IMG/VR virus record: IMGVR_UViG_3300027798_000225
Location: 1-24,051 of that record
DNA from: a virus
Lineage: Duplodnaviria > Caudoviricetes
Reading direction: 5' to 3' (one strand)
Length of the DNA stretch: 24,051 nucleotides
Shown: positions 2,212-24,051 of the stretch, piece after piece
How the letters are laid out: the number at the start of each line of letters is the position of its first letter
Position numbering within the stretch: position 1 is the first letter of the stretch
Notes under the pieces: generated by a model
The model's database searches: none
What the model was told of the DNA's origin: nothing
What the model saw: only the letters and a program-made list of their open reading frames with translations
Program-made: the position numbers and the translations under genes

Positions 2212-3659
2212 GCAGAGGACGACGTGGAAATCGCAAACCAGCAGCGGCAGGGATTAACGCCCTGACAAATTTCGACGCCGCTCAGTGGAGTCCTCGCCGA
2301 GCTTACGTAAATTGGGGCACGCTGGACACGTCCAAGGAGCTTACCGGCGGCGATAGGCTTACCATCCTGCGCAAGGCGCGCAAAATGTATGCAGACGTAG
2401 GCCTTGCTCGTCGCATCGTCAATGGTGTTGCCAATCTCGTTGGCTATCTCAAGCCACAAGCCGCGACTCCTGACCGCGAGTTTAACCGAATGGCCGAAGA
2501 GCTATTCGAGGAGCGCGCCGGCACGCCGTTCGTGTTCGACCGCGCTGGCAAAATGGACTTCTTCCAGTGGCAAATTGCGCTGACTCGTCTCCGCATCAAA
2601 GACGGCGACTCGCTTTCTGTCCTTAGCGAAACCGAATCCAAAACCGCACGCATCATCTTTTATGAGTCTCACCAAATCGCCAGCGGACAGAGCAAAACAG
2701 CCCAAGACGGCGTTTTTCTCGACAAGTTTGGGCGGCACGTCGCTTACAACCTCGTCGATGTTAGCGACCCGAACAACGCAACGAGCGTGTCGGCGGACAA
2801 CGCGATCTTTTATGCCGATTTTGAGCGTCCAGGTCAAGTCAGGGGAATTTCCGCACTCGCTCACGCCCTGAACAACATCCAGGACAGCGCCGAGATCACC
2901 GCCGACGTGAAGCACGGCATCAAAATGGCCAATCAGGTTGGCCTTGTTCGGACCATGAAGGGCGGCAACGGGCCGCAGGGCTTTGCTAGCGCCGTCACGA
3001 CCCGCAGCACAGGTGGCAGCACGATCAACATCGAGCAAATGCGCGAGGGCGGCATAGTCGGGCAGCTAATGGAAAATGAAGCGCTTTCCGTCATCCACGA
3101 CGGGCGTCCACATCCAAACCAGATGATGCTACTCGAATGGCTGGTGCGTGACATCGCATGGGGCGTTGGTTTGTCGCCAGAGGTGCTCTGGGACTTAGCT
3201 AAGCAAACAGGGCCAAGCCAGCGCTACCTAATGGCTGAGACTCAGCGCTGGATTGAGCATGAGCAAGCACGGCTCAAGCAAGCCTGTCAGCGCTTCTACA
3301 CCTACTTCATCGCCAAGGCCGTCAAGAACGGAGAGCTACCGCCACCGCCCGCAAACTGGTGGTGGGCTGAGTGGATTCCGCAAGCAGACCTAACCATTGA
3401 CCGTGGCCGCGAAGGGCGGCTTGAGCTTGAGCAGTTAGACGCAGGCGTGATGAGCTTGAATGACTACCACGCACGCAAAGGACGCGACTGGGAAAGCGTG
3501 GAGATGCAGAAGGCGCGGGAGATTTTACGCCGCCGTGAAATCGAGTCTGAAATGGGACTCGATGAAGGCGCGCTGGACGGATTCAAGCAGAAGCAACTCG
3601 ACATACAGGAGGACGCAAATGAGCAACAAGACATGGTATCAGATCAAAGCCAAGAGTGA
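2208..3659 (+). CDS. Portal protein, lambda family
   Basis: 483 aa, with ERPGQVRGISALA, DGVFLDKFGRHVAY, IAWGVGLSPEVL and W..EWIP...TID motifs, in the expected position. Confidence 0.93.
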   Translation: MSRGRRGNRKPAAAGINALTNFDAAQWSPRRAYVNWGTLDTSKELTGGDRLTILRKARKMYADVGLARRIVNGVANLVGYLKPQAATPDREFNRMAEELFEERAGTPFVFDRAGKMDFFQWQIALTRLRIKDGDSLSVLSETESKTARIIFYESHQIASGQSKTAQDGVFLDKFGRHVAYNLVDVSDPNNATSVSADNAIFYADFERPGQVRGISALAHALNNIQDSAEITADVKHGIKMANQVGLVRTMKGGNGPQGFASAVTTRSTGGSTINIEQMREGGIVGQLMENEALSVIHDGRPHPNQMMLLEWLVRDIAWGVGLSPEVLWDLAKQTGPSQRYLMAETQRWIEHEQARLKQACQRFYTYFIAKAVKNGELPPPPANWWWAEWIPQADLTIDRGREGRLELEQLDAGVMSLNDYHARKGRDWESVEMQKAREILRRREIESEMGLDEGALDGFKQKQLDIQEDANEQQDMVSDQSQE

Positions 3660-4773
3660 CAAGCCGAAGTCGGCAGACATCAGCATCCACGATGAGATTG
3701 GATTGTGGGGCATCTCCGCATCTGCATTCATGCGCGATTTGCGCGGCATGGGTGAGCTGGATGAGATCAACCTTAGCATCCATTCTCCCGGCGGCGATGT
3801 GTTGGACGGCTGGGCGATTTACAACAGCCTGAAGAACTCCAAAGCTAAGATCACCGCTCGCGTCGAAGGGCTGGCGGCGTCGATGGCTTCGGTGATTCTG
3901 ATGGCGGCTGATACCGTCGAGATCCCAGAGAACGCCTACATCATGATCCACAATCCGTGGGGATTGGCCGTTGGCGATGCCGAAGAAATGCGCGATACCG
4001 CCGACCTGCTCGACAAGCTCGGTAACGGACTGGTCAATGCTTACGTATCCCGCACAGGCAACGACGAGGACGAGATCCGCGAGATGATGAGCGCCGAAAC
4101 CTGGATGGATGGCAAGGAAGCCGTCGAGCGCGGATTTGCTGACAAACTCATCGGTGCCGTGGCTCTAAGCGCACGCGCTTTTGACTCGCGCAAATTTAAG
4201 ATGACACCCAAGTCTCTCCAAGCCAATTCCGAAACCCCTCCAGAGGTCGCTCCTGTGGAGGAAACCGCAAACGCGCCAGTTGAGCCTATCGCTCCTGTTG
4301 ATGCGGATGCTGCAACTGAGGTCGAGCCACAAGCTCCCGAAGTCGAGGTGACGGAACCCCAAGCAAAGTCCCTGCTGTCACGGTTTACTGCCCTTTTTGG
4401 TGGTGACAGTGACTCGGCGCTCAAGGCTGAACTGCAAAACAAAGACGATCAAATCCAGGTCGCTCTTAGCTACATTGATTCGCTGAAAGCGCAAGTGGCC
4501 GCGCTTGAGCCAAAAGCCAAAGCCTTCGACGAAGCTACCACTGAAATCGCACGGCTTGAAGCTGAACGGCAAACGGCAGAAGCTAAGGCGGCGGCTCAAG
4601 TCGCATCACTCGGCTTTACTCCTGAATCTGAACGGAGCCTGCCCGACGCTGAGACTGACAAGGGCGACATCCTCGCGCAATTCAACGCGATCACTGACCC
4701 CGCTGAACGCACCAAGTTCTACAACGCAAACCGCAAGGCTATCCACGCCGCTCAATTCAAATTCAAATCCTAA
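3619..4773 (+). CDS. ClpP-type head maturation protease with C-terminal scaffold region (384 aa)
   Basis: Motifs IHSPGGDV, GLAASMASVI, MIHNPW and ETWMDGKEAVERGFAD. AGGAGG lies upstream of ATG 3619. A Pro/Glu-rich linker and coiled coil follow. Confidence 0.93.
   Translation: MSNKTWYQIKAKSDKPKSADISIHDEIGLWGISASAFMRDLRGMGELDEINLSIHSPGGDVLDGWAIYNSLKNSKAKITARVEGLAASMASVILMAADTVEIPENAYIMIHNPWGLAVGDAEEMRDTADLLDKLGNGLVNAYVSRTGNDEDEIREMMSAETWMDGKEAVERGFADKLIGAVALSARAFDSRKFKMTPKSLQANSETPPEVAPVEETANAPVEPIAPVDADAATEVEPQAPEVEVTEPQAKSLLSRFTALFGGDSDSALKAELQNKDDQIQVALSYIDSLKAQVAALEPKAKAFDEATTEIARLEAERQTAEAKAAAQVASLGFTPESERSLPDAETDKGDILAQFNAITDPAERTKFYNANRKAIHAAQFKFKS
4201..4773 (+). CDS. Nested in-frame scaffolding protein (Nu3-like, 190 aa)
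   Basis: In-frame ATG at the protease/linker boundary, preceded by TTGAC-N15 (4181-4200). The product is acidic and coiled-coil-like. Confidence 0.65.
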   Translation: MTPKSLQANSETPPEVAPVEETANAPVEPIAPVDADAATEVEPQAPEVEVTEPQAKSLLSRFTALFGGDSDSALKAELQNKDDQIQVALSYIDSLKAQVAALEPKAKAFDEATTEIARLEAERQTAEAKAAAQVASLGFTPESERSLPDAETDKGDILAQFNAITDPAERTKFYNANRKAIHAAQFKFKS

Positions 4774-6079: not shown

Positions 6080-6261
6080 ACGATTATCACTGGGCAGACA
6101 TTGCCGAAGCACCGCGAGACGGCACATGGATAACAGCCACCGAGATGTGGCGCGGAATGCCGATTTCGATCAAGCTGCGATTTGCTTTTGATGCATTCCG
6201 AGATGCTGAGGGCACGCCTTGGGAGCCGCAATACTTTGTGAAGGAGGGACCAAAGCCATGA
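6076..6261 (+). CDS. Small phage protein, DUF551-like (61 aa)
   Basis: N-terminal WADIAEAPRDGTWI motif and ATGA overlaps at both ends. Confidence 0.7.
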   Translation: MNDYHWADIAEAPRDGTWITATEMWRGMPISIKLRFAFDAFRDAEGTPWEPQYFVKEGPKP

Positions 6262-8480
6262 ACTACAAACGCAAACTCACCCTAGCCGTCATCTACGGCA
6301 ACGTCGAAAACATCATGGAGCGTTTCTTGCGTTCCTTTGCGCCGCTGGTTGATGAGGTGGTTTTGGTGCGGGCTATTGGCCGAAGCATTCCCGACGAAAG
6401 CTGGACGATTGCAAAATCAACACTTAGCGAGCTTGGTGTGTCGCATGGCATGACCGAATATCAGAACGCTGTCGGCACTAAGTGGCCCCACGTTGACAAC
6501 TTCGCCGCCGCCCGTCAAATAGCCTTCGACCTTGCCAGTAACGAATGGGTCATGTGGGCCGACACCGACGACATCCTCGACCCGCGCTACATCCAAATCA
6601 TCCGCCGCGCCCTGGACGGCTTAGAGGACGACTTCACCGGCATTCAATTCCCGTATGAGGTGCCCGAAGATTGCGTCACCGTCATGCGTGAGCGCATTGT
6701 CAGAAAGGATTCGTGGAAGTGGCAATCACCCATCCATGAATGCTTGATGCCCACCGTTCAAGACGCCAATATTGGCACGCTGAACAACGTCAAGATCGTT
6801 CACGCGCCGATCTCCCATCGAGCGCCGAACAATCAACGCAACATGCGGATTCTGGAAAGCATACCCGAAGCTGAGCGCACCGTGTCGCAGCGCTTTCATT
6901 TCATGCAGACTTTGGATCTCGTCGGCCGACATGACGAAGCGATGAACGAAGGCGCGAAGCTCGTTCAAGACACCGAAGTTCCGCCCGTCGAAAAATACCA
7001 GATTTATTGCTTCCTTGCCAAGGGCGCACAGGAGCCAATGCGGTCACAGCTCTACCTTCAGGCCGTAGCCATCGACCCTTCCCGCCGCGAAGCTTACGCC
7101 GAACTATGCAAGGGCGCATTCGCCCGTCAGAAGCCGCAAGAGATGATTGCTTGGGCTCGGTGCCTGCGCTCGCAACCGAAGCCTTACGAGTGGCCGTGGA
7201 ACGCTCGCCGATCACTCTGGGGACGGGAGGGCATTGAAGCTCACGCGATGGCGCTACGGGCTAATCTTGACTTCGTTGGCGCTGACACGCATGAGTTAAA
7301 CTTCTTCAAACGCAACGGCGCAAAGATCAGCCTTTTGCACGCGACCCGCGGACGAGTCCAGCAAGCCGCAGCCGCTCGCCGCAAGTGGCTGGAAAAAGCC
7401 GCAAATCCTGACGCCATTGAGCACATCTTCGCCATCGACGCCGACGACGCTGACAGCATCCAATACCTGACCTTGTGGCGGCACCGAATCGTTCAGGGTG
7501 ACGGTGGCCCAGTGCGCGCTTGGAACTACGCCGCCGAAGCATCACACGGCGAGATCCTGATTCAGTTGAGCGACGACTGGGAGCCTCCTATGCATTGGGA
7601 CAAGCTGATCCTTGAGTGGATTGGCGACACGTCAAAGCCTGCCGTTTTGCAAATCTCAGACGGTCACCGCGAAGACGATCTGATGTGCATGGCGATTCTG
7701 ACCCGCGCTCGATACCTTGATCAAGGTTACTTGTTCCACCCTGATTTTTTCTCGATGTATAGCGACAACTGGTTCAGCGAATGCGCTCACCGGGATGGAG
7801 TGGTGATTGATGCGCGGGATGTGGTGTTTGAGCATCTGCATCCTGCGTTTGGTAAGGCTCAAGTCGATGAGACTTACGCAAGGTCGAACATGAGATCGAA
7901 TTACGCCGAAGGCGCTCAGCATTTGCAGCGTCTCCAGAACGGCGCGATCACGTCATGGGACGTTGAGGGCTGGTGTGATTTTCGTGACCTTTACACGGCT
8001 ATTGCTCGCAAGCTGCAAGACGGCGACACGTTTGTCGAAGTCGGCGCGTGGAAAGGGCAAAGTATCATTCACCTTGCTCAGCGATTGCAGGATCAAGAGA
8101 AGGCGGTCAAGCTTTATGCTGTTGATACCTTCAAGGGCGATGCTGACACGGGAATTCTTGAAGTAGTGAAGGAGTTTGATCACAACGTGCAAGCGGCCAA
8201 ATGCAACTATAACGTGATCACTGTGGCGATTCCTTCAGTCATGGCGGCGACTGGTTTTGATGACTTATCCCTTGCGGGCGTATTCATCGACGCCGCGCAC
8301 GACTACGATTCAGTTCTTGCCGACTTGAAAGCATGGGGGCCGAAGGTCAAGGAAGGCGGCATCATCGCCGGTCATGACATCGACGCCGAAGGAGTGCAAA
8401 GGGCGCTGGCTGAGATGGGCTGGGAGTATCACGTGGTGGGGCGGTGCTGGGTGAAGAAGAATCAAGAAAACAAACCATGA
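6258..8480 (+). CDS. Multidomain GT2 glycosyltransferase - TPR - second GT-A domain - class I SAM methyltransferase (740 aa)
   Basis: First GT: NFAAARQIAF, WVMWADTDD, W.SPIHE. TPR-like: QAVAIDPSRREAY. Second GT: LLHATRGR, AWNYAA, IQLSDD. Methyltransferase: VEVGAWKGQS, FIDAAHDY, GGIIAGHD. AGGAGG RBS and ATGA overlap. Confidence 0.9.
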   Translation: MNYKRKLTLAVIYGNVENIMERFLRSFAPLVDEVVLVRAIGRSIPDESWTIAKSTLSELGVSHGMTEYQNAVGTKWPHVDNFAAARQIAFDLASNEWVMWADTDDILDPRYIQIIRRALDGLEDDFTGIQFPYEVPEDCVTVMRERIVRKDSWKWQSPIHECLMPTVQDANIGTLNNVKIVHAPISHRAPNNQRNMRILESIPEAERTVSQRFHFMQTLDLVGRHDEAMNEGAKLVQDTEVPPVEKYQIYCFLAKGAQEPMRSQLYLQAVAIDPSRREAYAELCKGAFARQKPQEMIAWARCLRSQPKPYEWPWNARRSLWGREGIEAHAMALRANLDFVGADTHELNFFKRNGAKISLLHATRGRVQQAAAARRKWLEKAANPDAIEHIFAIDADDADSIQYLTLWRHRIVQGDGGPVRAWNYAAEASHGEILIQLSDDWEPPMHWDKLILEWIGDTSKPAVLQISDGHREDDLMCMAILTRARYLDQGYLFHPDFFSMYSDNWFSECAHRDGVVIDARDVVFEHLHPAFGKAQVDETYARSNMRSNYAEGAQHLQRLQNGAITSWDVEGWCDFRDLYTAIARKLQDGDTFVEVGAWKGQSIIHLAQRLQDQEKAVKLYAVDTFKGDADTGILEVVKEFDHNVQAAKCNYNVITVAIPSVMAATGFDDLSLAGVFIDAAHDYDSVLADLKAWGPKVKEGGIIAGHDIDAEGVQRALAEMGWEYHVVGRCWVKKNQENKP

Positions 8481-8878
8481 AAACACGAATCTGGAATCTC
8501 ACCGAAACCTTTCCTGGGAAGGTCAACTTCATCGACGGCAACAACGTGATCCTTGGCTACGACCTTGGGCAAAACTGCTGCGAGCACGCCTTCTGGACGA
8601 TTAGCGAAACGCCGGACGGTAAAAACCCGATCCACGAAGGCGACAATGCCGCAGTGAAGGAAATCGAGCTGGATGGCTACTGCTTCGATCCTAACTACTG
8701 CCAGCGGCACGACGATGAGGGGGGCGAGGAATATGTCGCCACATTCAAGCTGGTGGGTGACCAATGGGACAAGCCGAAGCTGCCGGATCTCTTCTTGCGG
8801 CTGGAGAATCACCACAACGGCTACTACTCGCACGGTTTTGTTTTTCGAGGAAACAGCATTATCGAAGGCGCACTATGA
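8477..8878 (+). CDS. Phage hypothetical protein (133 aa)
   Basis: QNCCE and NHHNGYYSHG motifs, with ATGA overlaps on both sides. Confidence 0.8.
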   Translation: MKTRIWNLTETFPGKVNFIDGNNVILGYDLGQNCCEHAFWTISETPDGKNPIHEGDNAAVKEIELDGYCFDPNYCQRHDDEGGEEYVATFKLVGDQWDKPKLPDLFLRLENHHNGYYSHGFVFRGNSIIEGAL

Positions 8879-9453
8879 CTCCAAAACTCTCCATTCTAAC
8901 TCCCGCCATCTGGCGACGCATCGACAAAGCCCGCGCCCTCGCGGATCTCATCGCGCCGCATCCGCAGGCTGAGCACATCGTTGTTCTCGACAACATTACC
9001 CGCTCTGTCGGGCTCAAGCGCCAAGCGTGCCTTGATTCTGCCATCGGTGATTACGTGATGTTTTGCGACGACGACGACGAGATTTTCCCAGATACAATTC
9101 CGCTGATTCTCGCCGCCATCAAGCACGCGCCAGATGTGATTACCTTTAAGCAACACGCGATTTACAACGGGCGGCGGTCCGATGTAGTGTTTCACTTGAA
9201 CAACCAAGACGGGCCGTTCGTGGAAGGTGGGCAGACCTTGCGCGCTCCGTGGCACGTATGCGCGTGGAAGCGTGAGTTAGTGGCCGATTGCCTTTTCCCG
9301 GACATCTCGTATGGCGAAGATCGCGTGTGGGCAGAACAGGCACGGCGAAGGGTAAGGACTGGGCTGCACATTGATCAGGTGTTGCACCGTTACACGCATG
9401 ATGCGAGGGACACGGCTGCACCGGAAACGAACACCAAGATCAGCAACGGGTAA
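8875..9453 (+). CDS. GT2-family glycosyltransferase (192 aa)
   Basis: KLSILTP, SVGLKRQ, GDYVMFCDDDD and FPDISYGED motifs. Confidence 0.9.
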   Translation: MTPKLSILTPAIWRRIDKARALADLIAPHPQAEHIVVLDNITRSVGLKRQACLDSAIGDYVMFCDDDDEIFPDTIPLILAAIKHAPDVITFKQHAIYNGRRSDVVFHLNNQDGPFVEGGQTLRAPWHVCAWKRELVADCLFPDISYGEDRVWAEQARRRVRTGLHIDQVLHRYTHDARDTAAPETNTKISNG

Positions 9454-22664: not shown

Positions 22665-22838
22665 ATGAACGATACCATGAGCAAAACACTACCGCCCCCA
22701 CCACCTCCAGTTGGCACCTTCAAAGTCAGCGCAGATCTTCACCGTCGCGTCAAGATCCACGCCTGTCAGCAGGGTTACAAGCTCCAAGACTTCGTTGAGC
22801 GCGTCTTGGAAAAGTCGCTTAACCGCAAGAAGCCTTGA
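22665..22838 (+). CDS. Ribbon-helix-helix DNA-binding protein (57 aa; not in ORF track)
   Basis: MNDTMSKTLPPPPPPVGTFKVSADLHRRVKIHACQQGYKLQDFVERVLEKSLNRKKP shows the strand-helix-G-helix pattern of Arc/ParG-type proteins. Confidence 0.8.
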   Translation: MNDTMSKTLPPPPPPVGTFKVSADLHRRVKIHACQQGYKLQDFVERVLEKSLNRKKP

Positions 22839-22883
22839 GCATAACTTTATACAACACCGATAATACCAAATACAGATCGAACG

Positions 22884-23283: not shown

Positions 23284-23421
23284 ATGAAATCCCTCCTCTA
23301 CTCCCTCCTGCCCTACTGGGCCATTGCATCCATCCGCCGCCGCCGTGACATTGCCCGCCGCTACAAGCTCGCCGTGCGGGACAATGGCCGCATCTACGGC
23401 ACTTACCTTGACCCTCTCTGA
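23284..23421 (+). CDS. Hypothetical protein (45 aa; not in ORF track)
   Basis: MKSLLYSLLPYWAIASIRRRRDIARRYKLAVRDNGRIYGTYLDPL, after the leader CCAAAAACAACACC. Confidence 0.55.
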   Translation: MKSLLYSLLPYWAIASIRRRRDIARRYKLAVRDNGRIYGTYLDPL

Positions 23422-23474
23422 ATTTCCAACACACCGCAGCCCCGCACAACCCTGCACTCCACTTCACGACATCC
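23422..23474 (+). repeat. Pentamer array 1: ATTTCC-NN-(CVC-NN)8-CATCC, candidate guide RNA
   Basis: TCC AA, CAC AC, CGC AG, CCC CG, CAC AA, CCC TG, CAC TC, CAC TT, CAC GA, CAT CC. Confidence 0.85.
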
Positions 23475-23475
23475 T

Positions 23476-23548
23476 ATTTCCTGCACACCACTTCACCACA
23501 CGCCACAACACGCCACGACACTCCACTTCACGACACAACACAACATCC
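23476..23548 (+). repeat. Pentamer array 2: ATTTCC-NN-(CAC-NN)12-CATCC, candidate guide RNA
   Basis: TCC TG, then CAC followed in turn by AC, TT, CA, GC, AA, GC, GA, TC, TT, GA, AA, AA, then CAT CC. Confidence 0.92.
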
Positions 23549-23553
23549 ACTTT

Positions 23554-23567
23554 CCCTCACCCGAGGG
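23554..23567 (+). other. Small hairpin closing the arrays
   Basis: CCCTC-ACCC-GAGGG. Confidence 0.5.
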
Positions 23568-23599
23568 CTAAACCAAAACACAACAAGAACGATACACAT

Positions 23600-24051
23600 A
23601 TGAAAATCGCAACCGTCACACTTGAATCAGTCGCACCCTATTCGCAGTCCCGTTACCACGGCACGCCCAAAGATCCAAAGGAGGGGCACGACGACTATGA
23701 AGAACGCACTTGGCGCGAGAAGGGCCACTGGGACACCAAGACCGGAGAGCTGTTCATCCCGCCCATGGCTATCAAGCAGTGCCTGGACGCTGCCGTCAAA
23801 CGCTCTGGCAAGCAGATCCCGGGCAAGGGCAAGGCCACTTACACCAAGCACTTCCTCGGCGGGGTGATGGTGTTTGAGCCCGCCGTCTTGGAGGACCACA
23901 ACGGCAACCGCTACACCCGCGAGAACATCACCAAATGGAGCGGCATGATGAGCAGCACCGGCGAGAAGGGCAAGGCTGGTGGCAAGGTCGTGCTGCGTCA
24001 CTTCCCAGATGCGCCGACCTGGAACACCACGGTTCAATTCCACGTCATGGA
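23600..24051 (+). CDS. Cas7/RAMP-like protein (3'-truncated; not in ORF track)
   Basis: The frame is open to the window end: MKIATVTLESVAPYSQSRYH...YEERTWREKGHWDTKTGELFIPPMAIKQCLDAA...KVVLRHFPDAPTWNTTVQFHVM. The N-terminal strand ending in Pro and G..FIP..AIK..L resemble RAMP motifs. Confidence 0.72.
   Translation, partial: MKIATVTLESVAPYSQSRYHGTPKDPKEGHDDYEERTWREKGHWDTKTGELFIPPMAIKQCLDAAVKRSGKQIPGKGKATYTKHFLGGVMVFEPAVLEDHNGNRYTRENITKWSGMMSSTGEKGKAGGKVVLRHFPDAPTWNTTVQFHVM

Follow-up and report, generated by a model that had tools for sequence, protein, structure and literature searches.

How a phage could release several RNA guides from one tight run of five-base repeats is the question raised by the locus studied here, which lies in a 24,051-nt fragment of a tailed phage (the window) that carries terminase, portal, head protease, capsid, tape-measure and endolysin genes by family comparison with PHROGs and Pfam. 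With the VIPR systems defined by Yoon et al. (bioRxiv 10.64898/2026.04.26.720920) it has in common a phage RAMP homolog and one accessory gene, several guides per locus, and flanking arrays of 9-16 pentamers, each made of a fixed triplet and two variable bases (NN). Only ribozyme and single-guide vrRNA layouts are listed as sequencing-confirmed in that preprint; staggered arrays with a 1-nt overlap are mentioned in its Fig. S18 legend, and in the accessible parts of the VIPR papers such arrays are drawn without being listed as confirmed, and guide release from arrays is left open. VIPR itself, CAC/NN repeats and staggered arrays are, from what is accessible of the preprints, already in print; of the anatomy of the joint between guides and the maturation of guides that lack a tail we found no description in the accessible literature, whose figures and supplements may hold one. 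We hypothesize, with somewhat better than even confidence, that the repeat blocks of the window are VIPR guide RNAs made from one phage mRNA, and that a host endonuclease with a preference for U would separate them by cutting at the joint.

The features on which the argument turns all lie on the plus strand of the window:

22835..22864, plus strand: promoter-like site TTGAGC-18-GATAAT (2 sites in the region against 0.6 expected)
23284..23421, plus strand: 45-aa ORF, whose stop codon TGA (23419-23421) adjoins guide 1
23422..23427, plus strand: 5' handle ATTTCC of guide 1, equal to the downstream half of the joint (TTTYC opens nearly every clade array)
23428..23472, plus strand: body of guide 1, nine NN-CNC repeats (NN = AA AC AG CG AA TG TC TT GA)
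23470..23481, plus strand: internal joint CATCCTATTTCC, 12 nt, with a one-base register slip and a U-run; predicted processing or boundary site, unstructured
23482..23546, plus strand: body of guide 2, thirteen repeats (NN = TG AC TT CA GC AA GC GA TC TT GA AA AA)
23544..23555, plus strand: terminal joint CATCCACTTTCC, both halves complete by comparison of clade joints
23554..23567, plus strand: 5-bp hairpin in the vipr leader (CCCTC 23554-23558, loop ACCC, GAGGG 23563-23567)
23568..23599, plus strand: unstructured A/C-rich leader of conserved length (31-32 nt) by comparison across pre-vipr sites
23600..24051, plus strand: vipr gene by homology, first 150 of 194 codons (the window end cuts the gene; the remainder is taken from a related locus, L170)

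Read from left to right, the array consists of ATTTCC (23422-23427), nine NN-triplet repeats ending in CAT (23470-23472), CC T, a second ATTTCC (23476-23481), thirteen repeats ending in CAT (23544-23546), and CC A C TTTCC (23547-23555), with the ATG of vipr at 23600. That both blocks open with ATTTCC and close with CATCC had been described before and is borne out at 23422-23567, as is, by a direct parse of the window, the statement that the five-base register breaks at the joints only. The preliminary description had given RNA lengths of about 53 and 73 nt, which omitted one base: the unit periods are 54 and 74 nt (5n-1). Its start signal, ATTTCC-NN-CACAC, stands as far as ATTTCC; in CACAC, the AC is the second NN, a variable position, and falls outside the signal because AC occupies that place in only 7 of 60 clade units. 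The pattern CACNNCACNNCACNNCAC matches nine times, all within unit 2, with none expected (100 shuffles). A coding reading, in a frame open from 23324 through the array, was rejected, the distance from array start to ATG varying modulo 3 among relatives (0, 1, 0, 2, 0, 0), and a guide on the minus strand is disfavoured by the relatives, whose XXY triplets lie on the vipr strand.

Of 789 candidates, 773 are homologous at E up to 0.001 to the protein of the ORF at 23600. A family profile of 95 sequences (the window protein together with 94 of 120 listed homologs) matches SUSP1 Vipr (PDB 36pp) at E=9e-9 with the G-loop covered, the next match standing at E=0.11, and so the RAMP-like gene that had been noticed beside the array is Vipr. 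With the predicted model (pLDDT 93), Csm/Cmr RAMP chains rank first, none reaching E 0.001; the G-loop reads GRFRP in the window clade and GDWRP in SUSP1 Vipr. As far as sequence can tell, the window locus is a VIPR locus in the broad sense and not one of the canonical GGY type II: it fits the broad VIPR family and is predicted to work like VIPR. Period-5 arrays lie on the vipr strand in most of 75 related viral loci, with CAC, CGC, GGC, GAC, GTC, GTT, CTC, AGT or AAC as triplet; the window clade itself uses CAC (CNC) rather than GGY (CAC 557, CGC 56, GGY 0). Matches to Vipr in contigs of prokaryote genomes have 51% identity or less, and the joint pattern is absent from these contigs. Separately, the scaffold triplets are dispersed across the Vipr tree of loci L009-L075, on which CGC, GAC and GGC each appear in several places and many forks are weak, a distribution that suggests frequent triplet switching; one supported clade of that tree, of ten CAC/CGC systems, has the G-loop RP[Q/E]NGG in common.

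L170, which is identical to the window across 1737 nt, supplies the rest of the locus: two guides, vipr, three guides, vap (the accessory gene) and two guides, making seven guides in one phage. It is a minimal phage-borne locus of vipr and vap with no CRISPR array, and no cas genes were seen in the window. No family match was obtained for vap, neither Vipr nor vap has a Pfam family, and the 45-aa ORF belongs to no family in PHROGs or Pfam.

The two blocks are, with high probability, separate guides, a reading well supported by the length of the joint, by changes of slot that involve whole units, and by the way in which arrays start. The earlier suggestion that the blocks are separate modules is supported: whole units change slot, and guides common to several phages align from the handle. 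A near copy of window guide 2 occupies the third slot after vipr in L002 (9 of 10 NN; 94% over 83 nt), a guide found in slot 2 of L005 lies in slot 3 of L166, and the first eight NN of guide 1 are the same in L002 and L007, with the middle base of the triplet differing at 2-3 places per pair. Units contain 9-16 repeats in 57 or more of 60 cases (9 and 13 in the window); in 53 of 58 units the closing NN is AA or GA. A related observation was made in L009-L072: for most triplet types the final one to three NN of the guides are AA (or GA), a U- or A-rich stretch often comes next, and the 3' repeats of those guides may be scaffold rather than target-coding. In L051, CAC/NN arrays of 33, 62 and 62 repeats (2268-2440, 2672-2990, 3579-3895) have no register break and no joint and far exceed the 9-16 repeats reported for vrRNAs; CAC arrays can therefore exist without a joint.

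Parsing the clade yielded 63 units, or 60 without the three long L051 arrays (L051 was excluded from clade counts and from the mismatch target scans), and 37 distinct junctions. The joint follows the consensus CAW/Y-YY-W-N-TTTYC and measures 12 nt, counted between the flanking NN, in a position where in-register spacing would need 8 or 13; this length is found in 36 of the 37 junctions, and in the 37th a decayed unit comes after a 12-nt joint. Because the pattern used to find some of the loci contains the joint, the count free of bias is that for the loci found through the protein (window, L002-L007): 15 of 15. Six joints in L168 read CAA-YAGA-TTTCC, outside the search pattern, and are still 12 nt long. 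In the window the pattern matches twice, exactly at the two junctions (0.03 expected). Positions 1, 2, 8, 9, 10 and 12 are invariant, and U-runs of 3 to 6 are accommodated with no change of length; position 7 is C before vipr in 6 of 7 loci and A, T or G in internal joints. Half-sites also occur: array starts retain TTTYC alone, and array ends that do not precede vipr mostly read CAY-YY-A-W-T, with TTCC lost. The earlier proposal that the linker is a conserved boundary is upheld by this comparison of homologous loci, in which the uniformity partly reflects shared ancestry because the joints are paralogous copies.

By homology to SUSP1 Vipr, in whose structures one protomer binds one repeat as far as the accessible account goes (10.64898/2026.04.26.720927), one Vipr protomer would cover each five-base repeat, hiding the triplet and exposing the NN, which would then pair with DNA in gapped fashion with a one-base skip. 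As the joint sets the unit period at 5n-1, the filament could not continue in register across it and would leave a short uncoated gap. This gap would hold the array's only UUU; UUU is seen just once in 3600 nt of unit bodies in the clade. An RNase E/G-like enzyme would cut there to give guides of about 54 and 74 nt, each starting near UUUCC, finishing near RA-CAU-CC, and shielded by its protein coat in place of a folded tail. The accessible text of PMC5222698 gives RNase E a preference for single-stranded RN/WUU, and this consensus occurs in 27 of 36 joints. The nine joints that lack the full RN/WUU include the internal joint of the window, and with no strong nuclease motif conserved they favour a different reading, in which the joint is an insulator only and is left uncut or trimmed. 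In the same direction, the C at position 7 of the pre-vipr joint could spare that joint from cutting, and SUSP1 guides have a folded 3' cap (10.64898/2026.04.26.720920). An insulator would need no more than the register slip, and the invariance of TTT in all 36 joints goes beyond that need; moreover, 15 of the 16 other array ends are without a hairpin. We consider pure insulation unlikely, and favour cutting by a host enzyme. The loss of TTCC at array ends before vap or later genes speaks against such cutting, for the release of those last guides is unexplained by the joint alone.

The hairpin before vipr folds at -7.5 kcal/mol (z -3.0 for 23540-23602) and is found at all seven distinct pre-vipr sites, 31-32 nt upstream of the start codon. 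Five loop sequences, four invariant pairs and one C-G to U-G change are seen across these sites, with no compensatory pair among the seven, and the hairpin is probably real. The preliminary description had assigned it to protection of the 3' end of the guide. Its distribution speaks against this role, for internal guides have no 3' tail and among 16 other array ends a single one folds (at -6.9 kcal/mol, from 22 nt past the last triplet), and so does its position past a complete joint: a cut at that joint gives the hairpin to the vipr mRNA and not to the 74-nt guide, and is thus incompatible with a hairpin that protects the guide. More likely than a part of the guides, the hairpin is a part of the vipr message, at the 5' end of which it would come to lie. 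The CC of the handle and the beginning of a would-be third unit fall within its 5' arm, and by masking the CC-NN-C of that unit the hairpin might keep Vipr off its own leader or stabilize the released vipr mRNA. Alternatively, the pre-vipr joint, with its C at position 7 in six of the seven loci, may go uncut, and the hairpin would cap a guide 2 of 92 nt.

A cutting enzyme might also be sought within the locus itself. In CRISPR systems, Cas6 processes a multi-guide precursor in which each guide receives a short 5' handle, and the present array is similar in both respects; it differs in having no palindromic repeat and in interleaving guide information with scaffold. Vipr has a RAMP fold, as does Cas6, and the fixed geometry of a 12-nt joint containing a 5-nt handle would suit recognition of TTTCC, and cutting of the joint, by Vipr or by Vap. 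Close relatives nevertheless separate their guides by linkers of 17-74 nt that are unrelated to the joint and in some cases contain terminator- and promoter-like parts, no RNase activity of Vipr is reported in the accessible parts of the VIPR papers, and hammerheads do the job in other types (10.64898/2026.04.26.720920). The strongest form of the idea, that the one-base slip and the UUUCC handle would be the entire maturation signal of tail-less guides and that Vipr itself would cut, strikes us as distinctly improbable, as does recognition of the handle and cutting of the joint by Vipr or Vap in general. If Vipr did cut, Cas6-like precursor processing would be the work of a pre-CRISPR RAMP, and a 12-nt element would pack many guides into one transcript.

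Cutting by a host enzyme supposes a common precursor, and the position of the arrays agrees with this: in 20 of 22 cases examined the array starts 0-2 nt after a stop codon, which places arrays inside an mRNA and leaves a promoter no space between genes, although one within a gene is possible. The promoter-like site of the window, about 560 nt upstream of the array, is the likely start of a transcript that would run through small ORFs into the array. The motif around it, GCATAAC...ATAAT, recurs in L002, L003, L077, L079, L170 and L171; in L003, where the motif lies directly upstream of the array, 10 nt separate the end of the ATAAT box from the first ATTTCC. Just before the window site, at 22665-22838, lies a small gene of ribbon-helix-helix (Arc-like) type, with weak matches. 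The -10-like box just ahead of the first handle in L003 would suit the idea of guides transcribed one by one, each as a primary transcript, with the joint as a compact stop/start signal, and so would the linkers of L040 and L065, which carry hairpin/U-tract and TATAAT- or TTGACA-like parts. Against this idea, 12 nt is too short for a promoter, and what lies upstream is guide sequence, which varies; at the joints there is no promoter- or terminator-like site, and no stem precedes the U-run. It is the least probable of the readings considered here. In more distant relatives, boundaries are linkers of 17-74 nt, some resembling terminator-promoter cassettes. L040 (4143-5622) has ten CTC/NN guides; behind every one of them come a hairpin with U-tract and a CATAAT/TATAAT box, so that each guide apparently has a terminator-promoter cassette of its own.

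The mobility of units raises the further possibility that the joint serves mainly at the DNA level, as a site for the duplication, insertion or swapping of guides. Whole units do change slot, vipr and vap have been lost between arrays in a sibling phage (G004), and the joint of L168 (902-2119, minus strand), CAA-TAGA-TTTCC, looks like a copy of the stop codon and handle that open arrays, which hints at duplication of the array start as the source of new guides. Exchanges are, however, also seen inside units, through the CAC repeats, as in L002 4339 against L083 882 and in the 5' ends that L166 1545 and L006 2888 have in common, and neither the handle at array starts nor the fixed length is explained in this way; a role mainly in DNA exchange seems to us very improbable.

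For the usage of 480 NN from 52 units (eight near-duplicate units removed), codon positions 1-2 on both strands give the best fit of nine models tried, with a log-likelihood of -1319.5 against -1330.8 for uniform and -1336.1 for genomic usage (Spearman 0.69, p 0.003), which offers modest, indirect support for a one-base-skip code. Searches for targets (five pattern scans, requiring an exact match with a one-base skip in viral contigs, and two mismatch scans) gave matches at chance level only, for any guide. Guide 1 had 76 matches, 63 of them in one family of near-identical contigs, and only three (one family, 27% GC) extended by one NN; guide 2 had two matches in a first scan, neither of which extended or had its skip at the wobble position, and nine in a later one (best 22/26). 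The L005 guide had a single match at 34% GC with no extension, and the longest L170 guide had 22 (best 25/32); all of these were taken as chance. When 60 units were compared with 2.0 Mb (both strands counted, arrays masked) at skips of 0-3, they scored like shuffled guides, and in 1.1 Mb of unmasked kin 4 of 120 lay above the shuffles and 8 below. The best mismatch case, an L002 guide in G003 (16/18), skips codon position 1 and was rejected.

Compared with known layouts, the window clade differs from SUSP1-like type II systems in having no invariant folded 3' tail or pseudoknot, its guides being separated by the 12-nt joint alone. It differs from ribozyme-interspersed vrRNA arrays in having no hammerhead and a short, unpaired joint (no Rfam match was found in L170 6500-9778 at E up to 1). 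Staggered vrRNA arrays, to judge from their legend description rather than from sequence, are close: in them too, guides follow one another directly and are staggered by one base, each beginning where its predecessor ends, and a one-base offset is what we find here (period 5n-1 in 36 of 37 junctions); the distinct U-rich joint with two halves sets the present arrays apart. CAC/NN has been named as a divergent alternative motif next to Vipr-like folds (bioRxiv 10.64898/2026.10.21.760802), the accessible part of which does not describe joints, processing, tails or targets for these non-canonical arrays.

With seven guides in one phage and a single kind of 12-nt joint, the window clade is a minimal and well-replicated test case for guide release, and it offers natural joint variants in which the length is kept and the sequence changed. 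If the joint works as predicted, no folded tail would be needed and multiplexing would cost 9 extra bases per guide; a non-GGY scaffold could also be orthogonal to SUSP1 Vipr.

Solo vrRNAs have been reported in phages that lost vipr-vap (bioRxiv 10.64898/2026.10.15.759431, in its accessible part), and the sibling G004 presents the same pattern (two guides, no vipr-vap), with CAC repeats. Its capsid protein is 98% identical, its record (estimated to be 86% complete) contains no vipr match, and its two-guide CAC array (L079 2400-2710, minus strand; also L204) is fused to the flank that normally follows vap; these solo guides likely derive from a deletion between arrays. Elsewhere in the window, glycosyltransferase-like genes (6219-8480 and 8764-9453) lie between the capsid and head-closure genes, one of them with a C-terminal methyltransferase-like part.
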